Source: Escherichia phage UPEC03. From it: 64,000 nucleotides of DNA. Each line of letters opens with the position of its first letter. Position 1 is the stretch's first letter. A program made the translations under genes and the position numbers. The notes under the pieces were generated by a model. The model did not search any database. It worked only from the letters and a program-made list of their open reading frames with translations, and was not told where the DNA came from. Positions 37,225 through 44,089 of the stretch are shown piece after piece. Location: sequence record MW250785, one strand, 5' to 3'.

Positions 37225-37487
37225 TCAATATATCCCCAACGAATTTTTACGTTATCTTCTGACGCCGGACTTGTAGGAGTTGGGTATGGATAACTTTGCG
37301 CTTCCCACAGATAAACAATGGCGTGTTTTGTCAATTCTTCGATAACTTCATCGAAAGTACCGACACTGGTTTGTAAAGGCAACGAGAAAGGTTTATCGTT
37401 GGTTTCTACTTGAGCGATTGGCCCATCTACCAAGATAACACGAACCGTTGTGTGCTCAGACATATGAGCATAGATTTTGTTTTTCAT
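37221..37487 (-). CDS. Hypothetical protein (88 aa)
   Basis: Coupled ORF. Confidence 0.4.
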   Translation of the reverse strand: MKNKIYAHMSEHTTVRVILVDGPIAQVETNDKPFSLPLQTSVGTFDEVIEELTKHAIVYLWEAQSYPYPTPTSPASEDNVKIRWGYIE

Positions 37488-37822
37488 GCGGGTACATATT
37501 CCACTTTGACAGGTTTTGCAATAAGGCGTTCTTTGGTGAAGCCTTGCCCGTTACAGATATCACAAGTAACGTTGAAGTCTTCCATCTGATCAACCCAGCC
37601 AGAATCCGGTAAGCCAGAAGGATACGTGTTAACACGCACAACTTCGAACCCTTTACCATCGCATTTCGGGCATTTGTGCGGGTACTGGGATTTAACCATA
37701 CTCAGCAGTTGCCCCAGCGTTGTTGAACGATCGAAGCGTTCGACCAGTGCCATTACATCAGCAATACGAATCGAACCAGCATCAATAACGGTATACAGGT
37801 TTTTCGGTACATTTGAGCGCAT
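37484..37822 (-). CDS. Small DnaJ-type zinc-finger protein (CxxCxGxG x2)
   Basis: CPKCDGKG and CDICNGQG; ATG at 37822 (listed ORF has an implausible Cys/Ser-rich extension). Confidence 0.45.
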   Translation of the reverse strand: MRSNVPKNLYTVIDAGSIRIADVMALVERFDRSTTLGQLLSMVKSQYPHKCPKCDGKGFEVVRVNTYPSGLPDSGWVDQMEDFNVTCDICNGQGFTKERLIAKPVKVEYVPA

Positions 37823-38062
37823 AGTATATTTCTCACTTAAAAATTTTTTTGATGAAAGAGAGGAACAATCCACCACCGAACATGATCCAGTATCCCGCGC
37901 CGTCACCGTTAAACAGGACATACACAGCGACACCATAGCAAAAGATTTCCGCGATATTCAGTAAGTTTCTCATAACTCCCTCCTTTGTCTACACCAGGTA
38001 TTTTACCAGAAAGTAGATTACTGTCAACAACAAAGTTTTATCAACCCACTTATCACCAGTCA

Positions 38063-38203: not shown

Positions 38204-38268
38204 GATTGCCTCCTTTGTTTCGACACCCCTAATATAACAAAAGCCCCTGCACGAATGCAAGGGCTTTT
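38204..38268 (-). promoter_or_regulatory. Terminator-promoter-leader module (copy 6 of 6)
   Basis: Minus strand AAAAAAGCCC-TTGCAT-N17/18-TATATTA-GGGGTGTCGAAAC. Confidence 0.45.
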
Positions 38269-38269
38269 T

Positions 38270-38827
38270 TCAAATATTTTTCAACATGTGTAGTTGAGGC
38301 GGACAATCTTTTGAAGCAATCAGGCGATCCAGGCGTGACATAACGCGTCTGTAGCCGTCATACTCGAACTTGATTTTAGGTGCGATGTAATTAACATGGA
38401 TCGCGTTTCGCGTGTTCAGGCTCAATGTATACTCAGGGATAACGGTTCGGAATCGTACAGCAATCACTGGCTTTTCGTGAGCAATAGAATCATCCATGTT
38501 TTCAAACATCTGGACGGTGAACGCACAGGCAAACACTTTGCCATTGATCCGGCGATATGCAATGACTTCCTGCATACCTTCGTTTTTCGCTTTCACCGCG
38601 TAATGCAGAACGTTACACGAATAATGTTTAGCGAGACTATTAAGAATTTCACTGTAGATCGCAAAGTCTTTTTTGACTGACGCGGAACGATCCAGGAATC
38701 GGTCTGCGATGTGATCTGTAGTCATTGAAACCTTTGTCACATACCAATCACTTAACGCTTTACTGAAATTTTGGTTAACTTCTCTGCGTAAGTTATTGAT
38801 AACATACATCAATCGTGCTCTGTTCAT
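38270..38827 (-). CDS. Hypothetical protein (185 aa)
   Basis: ORF with ATG start. Confidence 0.5.
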   Translation of the reverse strand: MNRARLMYVINNLRREVNQNFSKALSDWYVTKVSMTTDHIADRFLDRSASVKKDFAIYSEILNSLAKHYSCNVLHYAVKAKNEGMQEVIAYRRINGKVFACAFTVQMFENMDDSIAHEKPVIAVRFRTVIPEYTLSLNTRNAIHVNYIAPKIKFEYDGYRRVMSRLDRLIASKDCPPQLHMLKNI

Positions 38828-38830
38828 AAA

Positions 38831-39454
38831 TCACCCATTATGTTTGAAGTATTCGATCTGACGCAGACGTTTTTCTGCTGCCTCTTTCGAATCATATTCA
38901 CCAAGTTCTTTCGTGCGATCATGGTTCAGCACAACCCACTTATCGCCGCGATGTTCGATGTGCTCCGTGATGTCTTCAACTTTCTTATCAAGATCCAGCG
39001 GTTCAGCATCTTCCTCGATAATAGTCAAATCTACGGGCAGTGTCAACAGTCTTTTAACTCCGCTGATATCTTCGATGCGGGAATCATATGCGAGCGTTAC
39101 GTGTGGTTTGTAATCGTCATAATCGTATGTTGCTCCAGCATCCATTGCATCTTTGAAGCGGCTATGGAGATAATCAGATTCCAGAACGCCCACGATCGTA
39201 TTACCGTATTTCGTTTCCCACTTCTCCACGTCAACCAGTCGGGCAGGTTCAGAGATACCGGAGGCAGGGAACAGATCAACCGTCTTACGGCTATACACAA
39301 TCGTTGTATGCAGTTTTGCAGCGGAAACAGGATTCTCTACACCCAGAAGTTTTTGCACCTTCGCGAGCGCTTCACAGGAAGCCTGATCGAACTTCGCACA
39401 CATATAGATCCCCGGATCAACTACGGGTTTCGCTACTTCAATAAAACTTTTCAT
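38831..39454 (-). CDS. 2H phosphoesterase-like protein, candidate Acb1 (anti-CBASS) homolog with C-terminal extension
   Basis: Two H-x-T motifs (LHTTIVYS, PHVTLAYD) typical of the 2H/LigT fold; next to gp57A-like and gp1 genes, as 57B is next to gene 1 in T4. Confidence 0.5.
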   Translation of the reverse strand: MKSFIEVAKPVVDPGIYMCAKFDQASCEALAKVQKLLGVENPVSAAKLHTTIVYSRKTVDLFPASGISEPARLVDVEKWETKYGNTIVGVLESDYLHSRFKDAMDAGATYDYDDYKPHVTLAYDSRIEDISGVKRLLTLPVDLTIIEEDAEPLDLDKKVEDITEHIEHRGDKWVVLNHDRTKELGEYDSKEAAEKRLRQIEYFKHNG

Positions 39455-39512
39455 GTGTACTCCAAATGAAAAAGGGGCTTTCGCCCCCAGTGGTTAAACG
39501 CCTAAGCGTTAA

Positions 39513-39779
39513 TTATGCTTTTGATGCATCAATCGCTTCATTATCACCAGCGATTTCTACTGTTGCTGGCAGAAGTGCTTTGATCGCGCCGATCAGGGCA
39601 TCAGGGGATACACCCTGCGAACCGTCGATTTCCAGAAGACCGCAAATCTGGCCTACGAGTTGACGGTGATTTGCCAGTTCTTGTTCTTTACCCTGAATGA
39701 TTTCGTTCAGGTCGAATACACGGGCTTTCAGGATCAGGACATCGTTTTGAAGCTGTTGGGTTTGGTTTTGTTCAGTCAT
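39513..39779 (-). CDS. Tail fibre assembly chaperone gp57A-like
   Basis: 88-aa coiled-coil protein (...DVLILKARVFDL...IGAIKALL...); resemblance to T4 gp57A is from memory; adjacent to gene 1. Confidence 0.45.
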   Translation of the reverse strand: MTEQNQTQQLQNDVLILKARVFDLNEIIQGKEQELANHRQLVGQICGLLEIDGSQGVSPDALIGAIKALLPATVEIAGDNEAIDASKA

Positions 39780-39782
39780 TGT

Positions 39783-40451
39783 TTACACTCTTAAAAGATT
39801 GAATACATTAAGCACGTTGCGTTTCAAATCGTCTAACGTACCATTATTTAGGATTGTATAATCACTCAAGCCAGGTGTCAAACCTTTCTCCGTTGAATGA
39901 TTATCTTCAATACCAGTTTCACGTTCAAGGAACACAAAGCGAGTCCCGAACTTGCTCAGGTATTTATATTCGTGCGGTTGACGCACATCGGTAATGATAA
40001 AGTGATCCGCGTAGGATTTCAACATTTTTTGAAGCGCAATTGAAGTCCAGATAGACGGATCTACTTTACAAACAATATCAGTCCCGAACACCTGCATCAA
40101 ACGGCGAATCGTCCAGGGCTGGGTGTTTTCTTCGCAAATTTTATGAGCGATAACATCTGCGTTACTCATGAAGAACCCGCGAGAACTTAATTTTTTGATA
40201 CCGCTAGAAAACAGCGTGTATGCATCGTTATTGGACATCACCAGCGGGGCTTCACGATCACCCTCATAGAATGGGTTCTTCGCTGCCAGCGCTCGCAATT
40301 GCGTGTTATCGTGATGTTCCATAGAACGTTTCAGGATAGCTTTGATTTCGTCGGCTAACGCGATAACTTCAACATTGCGGAAGTTATGCACAACCATTTG
40401 AGCAACGGTATCTTTACCCGTTCGCTTTTTACCACAAATACCATAAATCAT
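39783..40451 (-). CDS. 1: Deoxynucleoside monophosphate kinase
   Basis: P-loop GICGKKRTGKDT; IRRLMQVFGTD, TDVRQPHE and HSTEKGL parallel T4 gp1 motifs. Confidence 0.85.
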   Translation of the reverse strand: MIYGICGKKRTGKDTVAQMVVHNFRNVEVIALADEIKAILKRSMEHHDNTQLRALAAKNPFYEGDREAPLVMSNNDAYTLFSSGIKKLSSRGFFMSNADVIAHKICEENTQPWTIRRLMQVFGTDIVCKVDPSIWTSIALQKMLKSYADHFIITDVRQPHEYKYLSKFGTRFVFLERETGIEDNHSTEKGLTPGLSDYTILNNGTLDDLKRNVLNVFNLLRV

Positions 40452-40999
40452 TTTTGCGTTTTCCGTGGAGTAGGCACGATCACCCGTCCGTCGATCTCAA
40501 TTTCCATGTGAGCGAAGTTGAACATCGTCATACAGGATACGGCTTCATCCGAATCATTGGTATACATAAGCTCAAGCTCTCCGAGGTTGGAGGGCCAAGC
40601 GCCATAGAAGCGAAATGTCGCTACAGTTTTTGACTGCGAGTTATCCAGGATATGCAAAGCCATTGCCTGTTGTGGTTCACTCCAACGCACGGAATCGAAG
40701 GTGTTAAAATCGACAGTACCGAGCATCCAAAGGTAAACCCCAAGATACGATCGCAGTTCTTCATCAACAGCAAAACGAATAGTCAGTGGATCGAACTCCA
40801 TTGCAGATCCTGGGATCTTCCCTCGAATCATTGGGTTCAGTGGGACATCCGTAATTGGAATGTTGATAGAAGGTAGTGTAACACCCTGAACTTGTAGTTT
40901 CAACCCTTTTACATAATCATTGTCAGGAATATCTAACATGAAGTTAGTAGGTGAAATCTGGTTCAGGATCATAGCAGTTGTATTCATGATGATCTCCAT
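40448..40999 (-). CDS. Tail completion / sheath stabiliser protein (gp3-like)
   Basis: 183 aa; 4-nt overlap with gene 1; T4 order 1-3-2-4. Confidence 0.45.
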   Translation of the reverse strand: MEIIMNTTAMILNQISPTNFMLDIPDNDYVKGLKLQVQGVTLPSINIPITDVPLNPMIRGKIPGSAMEFDPLTIRFAVDEELRSYLGVYLWMLGTVDFNTFDSVRWSEPQQAMALHILDNSQSKTVATFRFYGAWPSNLGELELMYTNDSDEAVSCMTMFNFAHMEIEIDGRVIVPTPRKTQK

Positions 41000-41255: not shown

Positions 41256-42041
41256 ATGAAATCATTCAAAGAACTACTTTCTGAATCTGTTCAGAACAAA
41301 AAATTTGCTAAGACCGTTGATCTGGTTGACCGTGGTAACGCTGCAAAAGGTCAGATCGGTTTCCTGCATTTTGCACATGGTGCTGATTACGATGTGTATG
41401 CGCCGGACTCCCACGATCTCGCTTACTTCGGTAAAGGTGTTGTCCGCCTGAAAGGTAAAACCACTGGTAAGACTCAGGCAGCGTATATTGACTGGGCGAA
41501 AGGCACTGTTTCATTCTACAGCGGTGATCCTGCTGACGATCTGAAATTTGACAAGCCACTGAAATTCAAAGGCGCTTCCCTGTACAAAGAAGCCGAAGAA
41601 AACCTGGATCTGTACAATCAGTTGGCGGAAGATTTCGAGATTGATCTGCCTCTGGATGAAGCATTGGTGAAAGGAAAGGTGTACAAGCTCCCAAGTAACG
41701 ATATGTGCTTGCTGTATACCGGACGTACCAAAACCAAAGAAACAGGTGAATACGCCGTGTTTACGGTTGTAGATGCCTCTGGTAAGCCTCGTCTGGTATC
41801 GGGTAAACGCTTTACCCAGGAATACAAAGGTGATGTTCTGTCTAAACTGGTTCTAGCTGAATCAGAAGATTTGAACGAAGCCGCTAAAGATATTCGCGAA
41901 AAAGTTATTGCGGTGTTGGTGAAACGTGGGTTTAACGAAAAAGACGCAGAAAAGATGGTTGATAAAAACCTGAAAGATGCGATGAAGGTTCGACCTGGCG
42001 CAACCCCTGGCAAACTCGCGGAAATCGTGAGTATCCTGTAA
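41256..42041 (+). CDS. Hypothetical late protein (261 aa)
   Basis: ATG at 41256 (listed start at 41199 is TTG); visibly optimised codons (CGT, CTG, GGT, AAC); own promoter and strong terminator; inserted between gp3-like and gp2-like genes on the opposite strand. Confidence 0.6.
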   Translation: MKSFKELLSESVQNKKFAKTVDLVDRGNAAKGQIGFLHFAHGADYDVYAPDSHDLAYFGKGVVRLKGKTTGKTQAAYIDWAKGTVSFYSGDPADDLKFDKPLKFKGASLYKEAEENLDLYNQLAEDFEIDLPLDEALVKGKVYKLPSNDMCLLYTGRTKTKETGEYAVFTVVDASGKPRLVSGKRFTQEYKGDVLSKLVLAESEDLNEAAKDIREKVIAVLVKRGFNEKDAEKMVDKNLKDAMKVRPGATPGKLAEIVSIL

Positions 42042-42953: not shown

Positions 42954-43421
42954 TTATTGCCCTTTCCATCCGAACACACGTTTCAATGTGTCCTCTGTGA
43001 TGATCTTGAACTCCCAGCCCTTTTGTTTTGCTGCTGCATTCGCGGCTTTCCATTTGTCAATGTTTACTGCATACGTATACAGTGCATCAACGAATTTCTT
43101 TTTGTTGTGAACGTTGTTGTTCGCTGGCTTAGGTGGGGGCAACGTTTCTTTCATCGGTTTGACTTCCCAAAGGTAGGTCACTCCATTATCCATTTCGACA
43201 TAGAAATCCATGAAGTAACGCCGTCGCTTTCCGTCTGCGTTGCTGAAATAAGGGATCACAACGCATTCTGAATTCCACCTCTTTACGTGGGGATTTCGGT
43301 CTAACCAATTCATTATATATTTTTCCCATGAAGAACGATATGTTATTTTTCTGGGATCTCCTTTATACTTTTCTATCTGTTGTGGCATAAAGGAACCTTT
43401 GTATGTCTGTCTTCCAGTCAT
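42954..43421 (-). CDS. Head completion protein (gp4-like)
   Basis: 155 aa (T4 gp4 about 150 aa); position between gp2-like gene and the 53/5 block. Confidence 0.45.
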   Translation of the reverse strand: MTGRQTYKGSFMPQQIEKYKGDPRKITYRSSWEKYIMNWLDRNPHVKRWNSECVVIPYFSNADGKRRRYFMDFYVEMDNGVTYLWEVKPMKETLPPPKPANNNVHNKKKFVDALYTYAVNIDKWKAANAAAKQKGWEFKIITEDTLKRVFGWKGQ

Positions 43422-44089
43422 TATTTCACCTTACAATTATCAAAATGCCACCTATACATTGCTCTGGGGTTTCCTTCTTTTCCGCAATGTGGACATATTA
43501 CAGGTTTCGTGTTTTTAGCTGAGTCGCGCATCTTTTGTTTTGCTTCTTCGCTAATAATTCTTCCTGTTAACGAAGCGCTAAGGTTATCTCTATGCTCTTT
43601 AGAACGGTTTGACGCAACTCTACTCATTTTTTGTTTGAATTCATCACTTCTCTTTATTCCGGTCATCCCTTCGGAAATACTTTTCTTGTGTGCTTCTGAT
43701 AGCGGTTTCCCTTTTATTGATTCTCGTCTTTTTCGTTTCCAATCATCGCTACGTGGTGGGTGTTTAGTCCCTATAGAATTGATTCGATTTTGTTCGGCTA
43801 CTTTCTCTCTGATCCATCCGTAAGTTCGAGAAGTCATTCTTCCAGAATGAAATCTTGATGCCATTGACATCATCTTACACGCGTATATAAGTTTTCCGTT
43901 TGTTGGGTACATTTTGACGAGTAGTTGATGGGCGAGATAGTGTTCTTCGGCAGTGAGACAAACGATATTTTCGGGTTCGTCCATTCCTCCCATACACCGA
44001 GGGATGATGTGATGGTTTTCTGAATACCCGCTTATAGTTCTTGATTGTGCTCTTTTGATAAGAAGTTCATAGTGTTTGCGGTAATTCAT
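43421..44089 (-). CDS. HNH homing endonuclease-like protein with basic repeats and C-terminal zinc ribbon
   Basis: HHIIPRCMGGMDEPENIVCLTAEEHYLAHQ; C-terminal CPHCG...C; AT-rich; sits between gp4-like and gp53. Confidence 0.75.
   Translation of the reverse strand: MNYRKHYELLIKRAQSRTISGYSENHHIIPRCMGGMDEPENIVCLTAEEHYLAHQLLVKMYPTNGKLIYACKMMSMASRFHSGRMTSRTYGWIREKVAEQNRINSIGTKHPPRSDDWKRKRRESIKGKPLSEAHKKSISEGMTGIKRSDEFKQKMSRVASNRSKEHRDNLSASLTGRIISEEAKQKMRDSAKNTKPVICPHCGKEGNPRAMYRWHFDNCKVK

Follow-up and report, generated by a model that had tools for sequence, protein, structure and literature searches.

The Acb1 ortholog of Escherichia phage UPEC03 probably carries an inserted, autonomous C-terminal mini-domain

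We analyzed a 64,000-nucleotide (nt) stretch of DNA from Escherichia phage UPEC03 (sequence record MW250785), referred to here as the window, and within it a minus-strand gene at 38831..39454. By sequence, modeled fold, and synteny, this gene is an ortholog of acb1 (T4 gene 57B), whose product acts against the signals of the cyclic-oligonucleotide-based antiphage signaling system (CBASS). Its product of 207 amino acids (aa) runs on past the T4 end into a tail that is probably an autonomous, DUF2188-like mini-domain inserted into the enzyme. The window belongs to an RB43-like phage of the T4 type, and 2.5 kb of DNA around the gene share 98 to 99% identity with Klebsiella phage Olmo, Enterobacter phage phi5, and Cronobacter phage GAP161; the protein has 100% aa identity to its counterpart in Cronobacter phage vB_CsaM_leE and 94% to RB43 57B, and about 180 phage records from several genera carry the full-length tailed form. 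The following features make up the locus.

38831..39454, minus strand: Acb1 with predicted C-terminal mini-domain; complete coding sequence (CDS), 207 aa plus stop, start codon ATG at 39454-39452 (open reading frame [ORF] list and sequence reading)
38981..39412, minus strand: Acb1 2H phosphodiesterase (PDE) core, residues 15-158 (Pfam, phrog, PDB, and Foldseek)
39302..39310, minus strand: first H-x-T motif, H49-T50-T51 (LHTTIVYS), aligned with T4 H44-S-T46 and FBB1 HTT
39095..39103, minus strand: second H-x-T motif, H118-V119-T120 (PHVTLAYD), aligned with T4 H113-I-T115 and FBB1 HIT
38960..38986, minus strand: lid-equivalent segment and linker, K157-H165 (KKVEDITEH; T4 alignment)
38834..38959, minus strand: predicted C-terminal mini-domain, residues 166-207 (AlphaFold2 [AF2], indel alignment, and family search)
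39460..39463, minus strand: Shine-Dalgarno sequence GGAG, 5 nt ahead of the ATG (sequence reading)
39513..39779, minus strand: gp57A-like tail-fiber chaperone (phrog_1002, E = 4.8e-25)
39783..40451, minus strand: gene 1 deoxynucleoside monophosphate (dNMP) kinase (Pfam DNMK, E = 2e-49)
40448..40999, minus strand: gp3 (library matches)
38270..38827, minus strand: downstream gene, function unassigned (phrog_7718, E = 3e-106), starting 4 nt past the Acb1 stop
39473..39488, minus strand: terminator-like hairpin, GGGGGC-GAAA-GCCCCT and then a T run, separating 57A from the start of Acb1 (consensus scan, pattern match only)
38239..38268, minus strand: second terminator-like hairpin, past the downstream gene (consensus scan)

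The initial annotation had called this gene an Acb1-like 2H phosphoesterase on the strength of two H-x-T motifs and of its gp57A-like and gene 1 neighbors. Profile, catalytic alignment, fold, and synteny all support that call. With Pfam PF23474 (Acb1), whose cut-off is 27 bits, the core scores 166.6 bits (E = 3.8e-49) and covers positions 2-142 of the 144-position profile; it also matches phrog_755, a family that annotation pipelines label "RNA ligase," at E = 4.9e-53; NCBIfam holds no Acb1 model. In a match to PDB 7t26, the Acb1 of Erwinia phage FBB1 (E = 4.5e-25), HTT falls on HTT and HVT on HIT, and Pfam and PDB matches of this strength, with the motifs aligned, show that the two motifs are not chance occurrences. 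BLASTP against gp57B, taken from the T4 record, gives 42% identity over 142 residues (E = 5e-34). The same annotation had named a failure of the H-x-T motifs to superimpose on the Acb1 catalytic residues as grounds for rejecting its reading; in the T4 gp57B alignment they superimpose. An AF2 model built from 23 homologs (mean predicted local distance difference test score [pLDDT], 86.7) finds 7t27 in Foldseek at E = 6e-14 with a target-normalized template modeling (TM) score of 0.79, and the lower-ranked matches are distant 2H enzymes (LigT, CPDase, Usb1, and a poxvirus cyclic GMP-AMP [cGAMP] PDE). Both neighbors are present on the same strand, and the block gp3, gene 1, 57A, 57B follows the T4 order, with Acb1 directly downstream of 57A.

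Acb1 performs catalysis with two H-x-T/S motifs, stacks bases with Y12, W74, and F107, and reads adenine N6 with E141 (PMC9117128). In the T4 alignment, Y17, W79, and Y112 of the UPEC03 protein correspond to Y12, W74, and F107, and E151 corresponds to E141. Three of the four T4 base-stacking aromatics are matched in this way, the exception being the lid residue W147. H49/T51 and H118/T120 would accordingly be placed as the catalytic residues, with Y17, W79, and Y112 stacking the bases and E151 reading adenine N6. By homology, the enzyme is predicted to open 3'-5' bonds in adenine-containing cyclic di- and trinucleotide CBASS signals, and their linearization would silence CBASS effectors. The UPEC03 protein thus shares with T4 and FBB1 Acb1 (PDB 7T26/7T27; Hobbs et al. 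2022, PMC9117128) the Pfam family, H-x-T motifs, stacking residues, Glu, fold, and locus.

It differs from T4 Acb1 at both ends. The 207-aa protein exceeds the 152-aa T4 enzyme by 55 aa, which the initial annotation had assigned entirely to a C-terminal tail. The tail is there, but it reaches about 45 aa past the T4 C terminus, not 55; the remainder is made up of 5 residues at the N terminus and 5 in a loop. In the AF2 models, the tail forms a 42-aa β3-α domain with strands at 165-169, 172-176, and 183-187 and a helix at 190-206. Its pLDDT is 80 to 88 in the full-length model and 89 when it is modeled alone with 60 homologs.

Where the tail begins can be read from the lid. In FBB1 and T4 Acb1, residues 145-152 form a flexible C-terminal lid that closes on the ligand, with W147 stacking on a base (PMC9117128). 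The T4 protein ends ...EPLKLDWADDLK, and the UPEC03 protein reads ...EPLDLDKKVEDITEHIEHRGDKWVVLNHDRTKELGEYDSKEAAEKRLRQIEYFKHNG; the lid segment is present (L155-I162), but K157 occupies the position of W147 and the chain runs on into the extra domain. The closest tail-less relatives, which are 63 to 90% identical and include Pantoea phage Phynn, end in the same Trp-less ...LDLDKxxxDIT followed by 0 to 15 residues. KKVEDITE is therefore the subfamily's own lid-equivalent segment, with the added part starting at about I166, and because the tail-less relatives are without the lid Trp too, that residue was lost independently of the gain of the tail. Many other Acb1 family members also have a Trp-less lid, so W147 does not define the Pfam family.

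The boundary of the added part is sharp at the DNA level. Alignment with the contig (L012) of a tail-less relative whose protein is 89 to 90% identical leaves a clean in-frame gap of 117 nt (39 codons), at approximately 38842-38958 in the window. Sequence on both sides of this indel is conserved, including the two final codons with the stop and the gene downstream, and the position of that gene (38270-38827) is kept in tailed and tail-less relatives alike (L012, RB43, and AYL). The tail would then be the product of an insertion that added about 39 codons in frame, immediately ahead of the final two codons and directly past the lid-equivalent segment. In a neighbor-joining tree of the core, calculated without bootstrap support, the tailed proteins group in a single clade, inside which the tail-less P0008 is nested; this suggests, from sequence, one gain of the tail and one later precise loss. 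A search of the window for further copies of the module found none.

The tail is also more constrained than the enzyme that carries it. In a comparison with a Slopekvirus homolog, the ratio of nonsynonymous to synonymous substitution rates (dN/dS) comes to 0.030 in the module (dS, 0.9) and to 0.091 in the core (dS, 1.4), and tail ratios span 0.03 to 0.18. The modeled fold and the clean indel mark the tail as probably a separate, added domain, and the low ratios and its presence in about 180 sequenced phages mark it as functional and under strong purifying selection. Separate expression of the tail from an internal promoter was considered, given a sigma70-like match at 39046-39018 (minus strand), and rejected: no in-frame start codon lies between the match and the module, and the 6 promoter-like matches in the region are close to the 4.5 expected from shuffling.

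A search with the tail alone extends it to a large family. With tblastn, the module appears in 498 phage records, among them free-standing genes of 52 to 66 aa in Ackermannviridae (AG3 gp184 and KpS110_105), the Aeromonas T4-like phages Aeh1 and phiAS5, Yersinia phage fHe-Yen9-01, and jumbo phage K64-1. In a collection of 5.8 billion proteins, at least 1,445 match the module profile at E ≤ 0.01; a single-sequence search of that database with the 47-aa tail returned 2 matches, its E values being too harsh for so short a query. Family members share the signature ...GDKWVV...K.LG...SKE.A.KRLRQIEYFKH, and most are free-standing proteins of 43 to 66 aa. Architectures were counted over 119 sequences matching the module profile: the module stands alone in 61, is fused to Acb1 in 7, lies C-terminal to another region in 43 (12 of these with an HExxH motif), and is N-terminal in 5 and internal in 3. 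The partner regions are weakly HAD-like or M78/IrrE metallopeptidase-like, or head-scaffold-like, and BFVD adds cytidylyltransferase-like, acetyltransferase, DUF4326, and homing-endonuclease proteins. In Vi II-E1-like siphophages, the module is the N terminus of a 471- to 496-aa protein (start uncertain) that is phrog_760 or weakly DUF2213-like, and its gene lies immediately upstream of those for head decoration and capsid.

Two further observations concern the setting of family members. The free-standing genes AG3 gp184 (L001 2447-2644) and KpS110_105 (L005 2019-2210) lie in tRNA gene clusters, abutting tRNA genes. Five metagenomic phage proteins of 190 to 306 aa (P0027 [L009/L010 6001-6591], P0025, P0029, P0034, and P0035) combine an HExxH motif, marking a putative zinc peptidase, with a C-terminal module, and the P0027-type gene overlaps the end of an unannotated 764-aa gene.

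Four features favor reading the tail as a self-contained binding module and not as part of the active site: the module occurs free-standing elsewhere, is found on many unrelated proteins (mostly at their extreme C termini), is more conserved than the enzyme, and has been cleanly lost in one close relative. It would then sit outside the catalytic machinery, tethering or oligomerizing the enzyme or adding a second binding activity. Overall, we assign a probability of about 0.75 to the reading that the gene encodes an Acb1 ortholog with an inserted autonomous DUF2188-like mini-domain that acts as a self-contained binding module.

The family's relationship to DUF2188 is distant. Nothing meaningful came out of Pfam or NCBIfam scans of the isolated tail, no PDB sequence matched the module profile significantly, and the UPEC03 tail itself does not match DUF2188 (PF09954; gathering score, 22 bits) at E ≤ 1. 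Among 60 module members, however, 42 match DUF2188 at E ≤ 1 and 15 at E ≤ 0.01, the best at 2.6e-5, and one member (P0105) has a precomputed PF09954 match. Judged by these profile scores, the module is probably a distant relative of DUF2188 and not a member; the two are similar in size, DUF2188 being mostly bacterial while the phage module family is far more conserved.

This kinship raises the question of whether the tail binds nucleotides. It could bind nucleotide signals or nucleic acid, capturing cyclic oligonucleotides or another immune signal beside the active site as a sponge or substrate recruiter, with the free-standing members as small sponges. We consider this unlikely, although several lines of evidence keep it in view. 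The DUF2188 matches are weak but consistent, and published work reports DUF2188 in a putative Thoeris effector, in CapH/CapP-regulated operons with nucleotide cyclases, and beside a CBASS operon of Pseudomonas. Some fusion partners act on nucleotides (2H PDE, HAD-like, and cytidylyltransferase-like proteins), the fold is similar to AP2 and YegP-type β3-α units, and the strands carry conserved Trp/Phe, Lys, and His/Tyr residues. On the other hand, the UPEC03 tail itself falls short of DUF2188, the module is about neutral in net charge as counted from its sequence, nucleotide binding is known for no DUF2188 protein, and the peptidase-like and scaffold-like partners have no nucleotide substrate.

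Alternatively, the tail might be an enlarged lid over the pocket, possibly with W173 replacing the lost lid Trp and with an altered signal range, for example, one that spares Panoptes decoy nucleotides. The lid of T4 and FBB1 Acb1 is C-terminal and closes on the ligand with W147, the UPEC03 protein has K157 in its place, and the next Trp lies in the tail (GDKW). A recent study reports that T4 Acb1 without its lid, unlike the intact enzyme, no longer triggers Panoptes-induced cell death and that lids are a recurrent modular adaptation, but also that substrate choice is set by the core and not by the lid (bioRxiv 10.1101/2025.08.21.671373). The tail-less close relatives are equally Trp-less, so the loss of the Trp does not depend on the tail, and the GDKW Trp is conserved in free-standing and otherwise-fused members, which fits a core residue of the mini-domain better. 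We regard an enlarged lid as quite unlikely.

A bolder alternative is delivery in the virion. On this reading, the plastic region downstream of 57B would have supplied the tail in the form of a small internal-head-protein gene. The capsid would take up the fusion protein, the prohead protease would cleave it at I162-T163-E164, and both parts would be injected. The protease gp21 cuts after L/I-x-E, targeting rests mainly on residues 4 and 7 of the capsid-targeting sequence (CTS), and the CTS may be a general route for loading proteins into T4-like heads (PMC9026906). Free-standing module proteins of T4-like phages and Ackermannviridae have leaders resembling the T4 CTS, as seen when AG3 (MKTFGDFIAE...) and Yersinia phage (MKTYIEFINE/IIVKSGDKF) are set against T4 internal protein I (IPI; MKTFKEFTSTTTPVSTITE/A), and the strict capsid-targeting pattern is found in 11 of 59 free-standing module proteins. 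The module gene of fHe-Yen9-01 is found downstream of 57B, amid small genes with such leaders, in the region that the T4 internal proteins also occupy; in T4, ipI comes after 57B. The starts in this Yersinia phage run (L018, 70000-84000) are MKTFAQF..., MKSYQEFITE, MKTYIEFINE (the module gene), MLQYNEFLKE, and MLEYSEFLKE, and the run resembles a plastic locus for internal proteins in which one copy of the module stands alone. As for the T4 internal proteins themselves (IPI, IPII, and IPIII), the module shows no sequence similarity to their mature forms, and the fused tail carries no separate leader.

The UPEC03 protein begins MKSFIEV, a start that resembles a targeting leader, and its junction reads D-I-T-E/H. 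Yet the start MKSFIEVAKP, with F4, has V7 and no L/I-x-E at 8-10 and so departs from the CTS rule, and [LIV]-x-E is seen ahead of the first strand in fusions of unrelated phages as well, which makes it partly structural; siphophage family members have no leader at all. An MKSF..E start is found in only two plausible genes of the window, Acb1 and 41256-42041 (MKSFKELLSE). The latter (plus strand) is a 261-aa ORF between gp3 and the gp2 DNA end protector, with L-x-E at 8-10 and a phrog_7322 match; on its sequence, it is a candidate internal head protein. The starts of T4 Acb1 (MMEFKDFSTG; L007 1474-1932) and IPI (MKTFKEFTST; L007 2006-2293) are alike in having aromatics at both 4 and 7.

Two observations from other phages bear on whether Acb1 travels in virions. 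A 2026 paper lists an "RNA ligase" (gp165/162) in CsCl-purified virions of two Jiaodaviruses, with 18 and 17 peptide-spectrum matches (PSM), respectively (PMC13119998). This protein is the canonical 57B/Acb1 ortholog: that of Klebsiella phage ValerieMcCarty03, VMC263_165 (L017 5051-5506, minus strand), has 151 aa and a Trp lid, and its neighbors are 57A, gene 1, gp3, and gp2. These PSM data suggest that Acb1 may be virion associated, but the study lists 153 and 135 proteins at ≥2 PSM, and contamination is possible. In addition, residues 482-592 of the cyanophage Pam3 portal protein (PDB 8hds) align with the Acb1 core, including both H-x-T motifs (E = 4.9e-4); by this alignment, the region would be a 2H PDE-like domain built into a virion protein. 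A literature search found no virion proteome listing 57B for RB43-like or Slopekvirus phages. As a lead, we rank virion delivery slightly below the enlarged lid. The same low expectation applies to two broader proposals, that the module family consists of widespread small internal phage proteins that are ejected, one of which became fused to Acb1 in RB43-like phages, or that the DUF2188-like module binds immune nucleotides and is a new sponge fold. If the delivery reading were true, the phage would arrive with a ready-made anti-CBASS enzyme and a second anti-host factor.

That the extension is an annotation or sequencing artifact (a lost stop or a frameshift) or a neutral remnant is scarcely credible. 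The frame is intact in about 180 phage genomes of several genera, this conservation and the low tail dN/dS rule out a frameshift or lost stop, the tail has a confident independent fold, and it has no internal start codon for separate expression. A frameshifted C terminus is present in a single public record, that of Klebsiella phage CPRSB (L014 1201-1836), but there the dNMP kinase is also broken into four CDS; sequencing errors are the most likely explanation, and the record is unfit as evidence of tail variation.

The preferred reading, an Acb1 ortholog with an inserted binding module, can be set against what has been described. The enzyme itself is already known, and RB43 57B (YP_239172, annotated "RNA ligase") has long been public. 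RB43 57B and its Pseudotevenvirus and Slopekvirus homologs (94% and approximately 82% identity) are the same tailed protein, available for years as "RNA ligase" or "hypothetical protein" with the extra domain unmentioned in the annotation, and none of the papers searched describes the add-on domain. Tail-less subfamily members (Pantoea phage Phynn, 174 aa; metagenomic P0008, 168 aa and 89 to 90% identical) have the same core, Trp-less ending, and downstream gene and stop 0 to 15 residues past DIT; it is against P0008 that the UPEC03 gene shows the clean insertion of 39 codons. The 2H PDE-9 of Burkholderia phage BCSR5 (PDB 9Q2G/9Q2Y) belongs to the Acb1 structural group but has an N-terminal lid and no DUF2188-like tail; the study describing it reports extra domains in 13 of 75 viral 2H PDEs (bioRxiv 10.1101/2025.08.21.671373). 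Term searches of that preprint and of Hobbs et al. 2022 (PMC9117128) found no mention of RB43 or the tailed architecture, and Klebsiella, Cronobacter, Enterobacter, Citrobacter, and RB43 gave no term match in the preprint's main text.

The surroundings of the gene add a few observations. Acb1 and the 38270-38827 gene are together bracketed by the two terminator-like hairpins, whereas in T4, 57A and 57B overlap; in the window phage, Acb1 may be transcribed separately from 57A. Farther along the minus strand, 37484-37936 encodes a 150-aa protein with a CxxCxGxG zinc-finger motif, weak matches to the DnaJ central domain and Anti-TRAP, and membership in phrog_6730. At 43421-44089 (minus strand), among head and baseplate genes, a 222-aa ORF shows by eye an HNH-like motif (HHIIPRCMGG...EEHYLAH) and is probably an inserted homing endonuclease.

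Acb1 is the prototype phage enzyme against CBASS signals, and its C terminus, the lid over the active site, is viewed in the literature as modular. Approximately 180 phages of Enterobacteriaceae, many of them phage-therapy candidates, carry an Acb1 with a Trp-less lid and a strongly conserved extra domain, a natural experiment on the tuning of Acb1 activity, specificity, or deployment, with a possible effect on the tripping of decoy systems such as Panoptes. If the tail is only an oligomerization tag, this would be a routine variant of domain architecture. Beyond Acb1, the tail leads to an unnamed and very large family of phage mini-domains of about 42 aa, occurring alone or on peptidase-, phosphatase-, nucleotidyltransferase-, and scaffold-like proteins, with a thematic link through DUF2188 to bacterial defense by nucleotide signaling.

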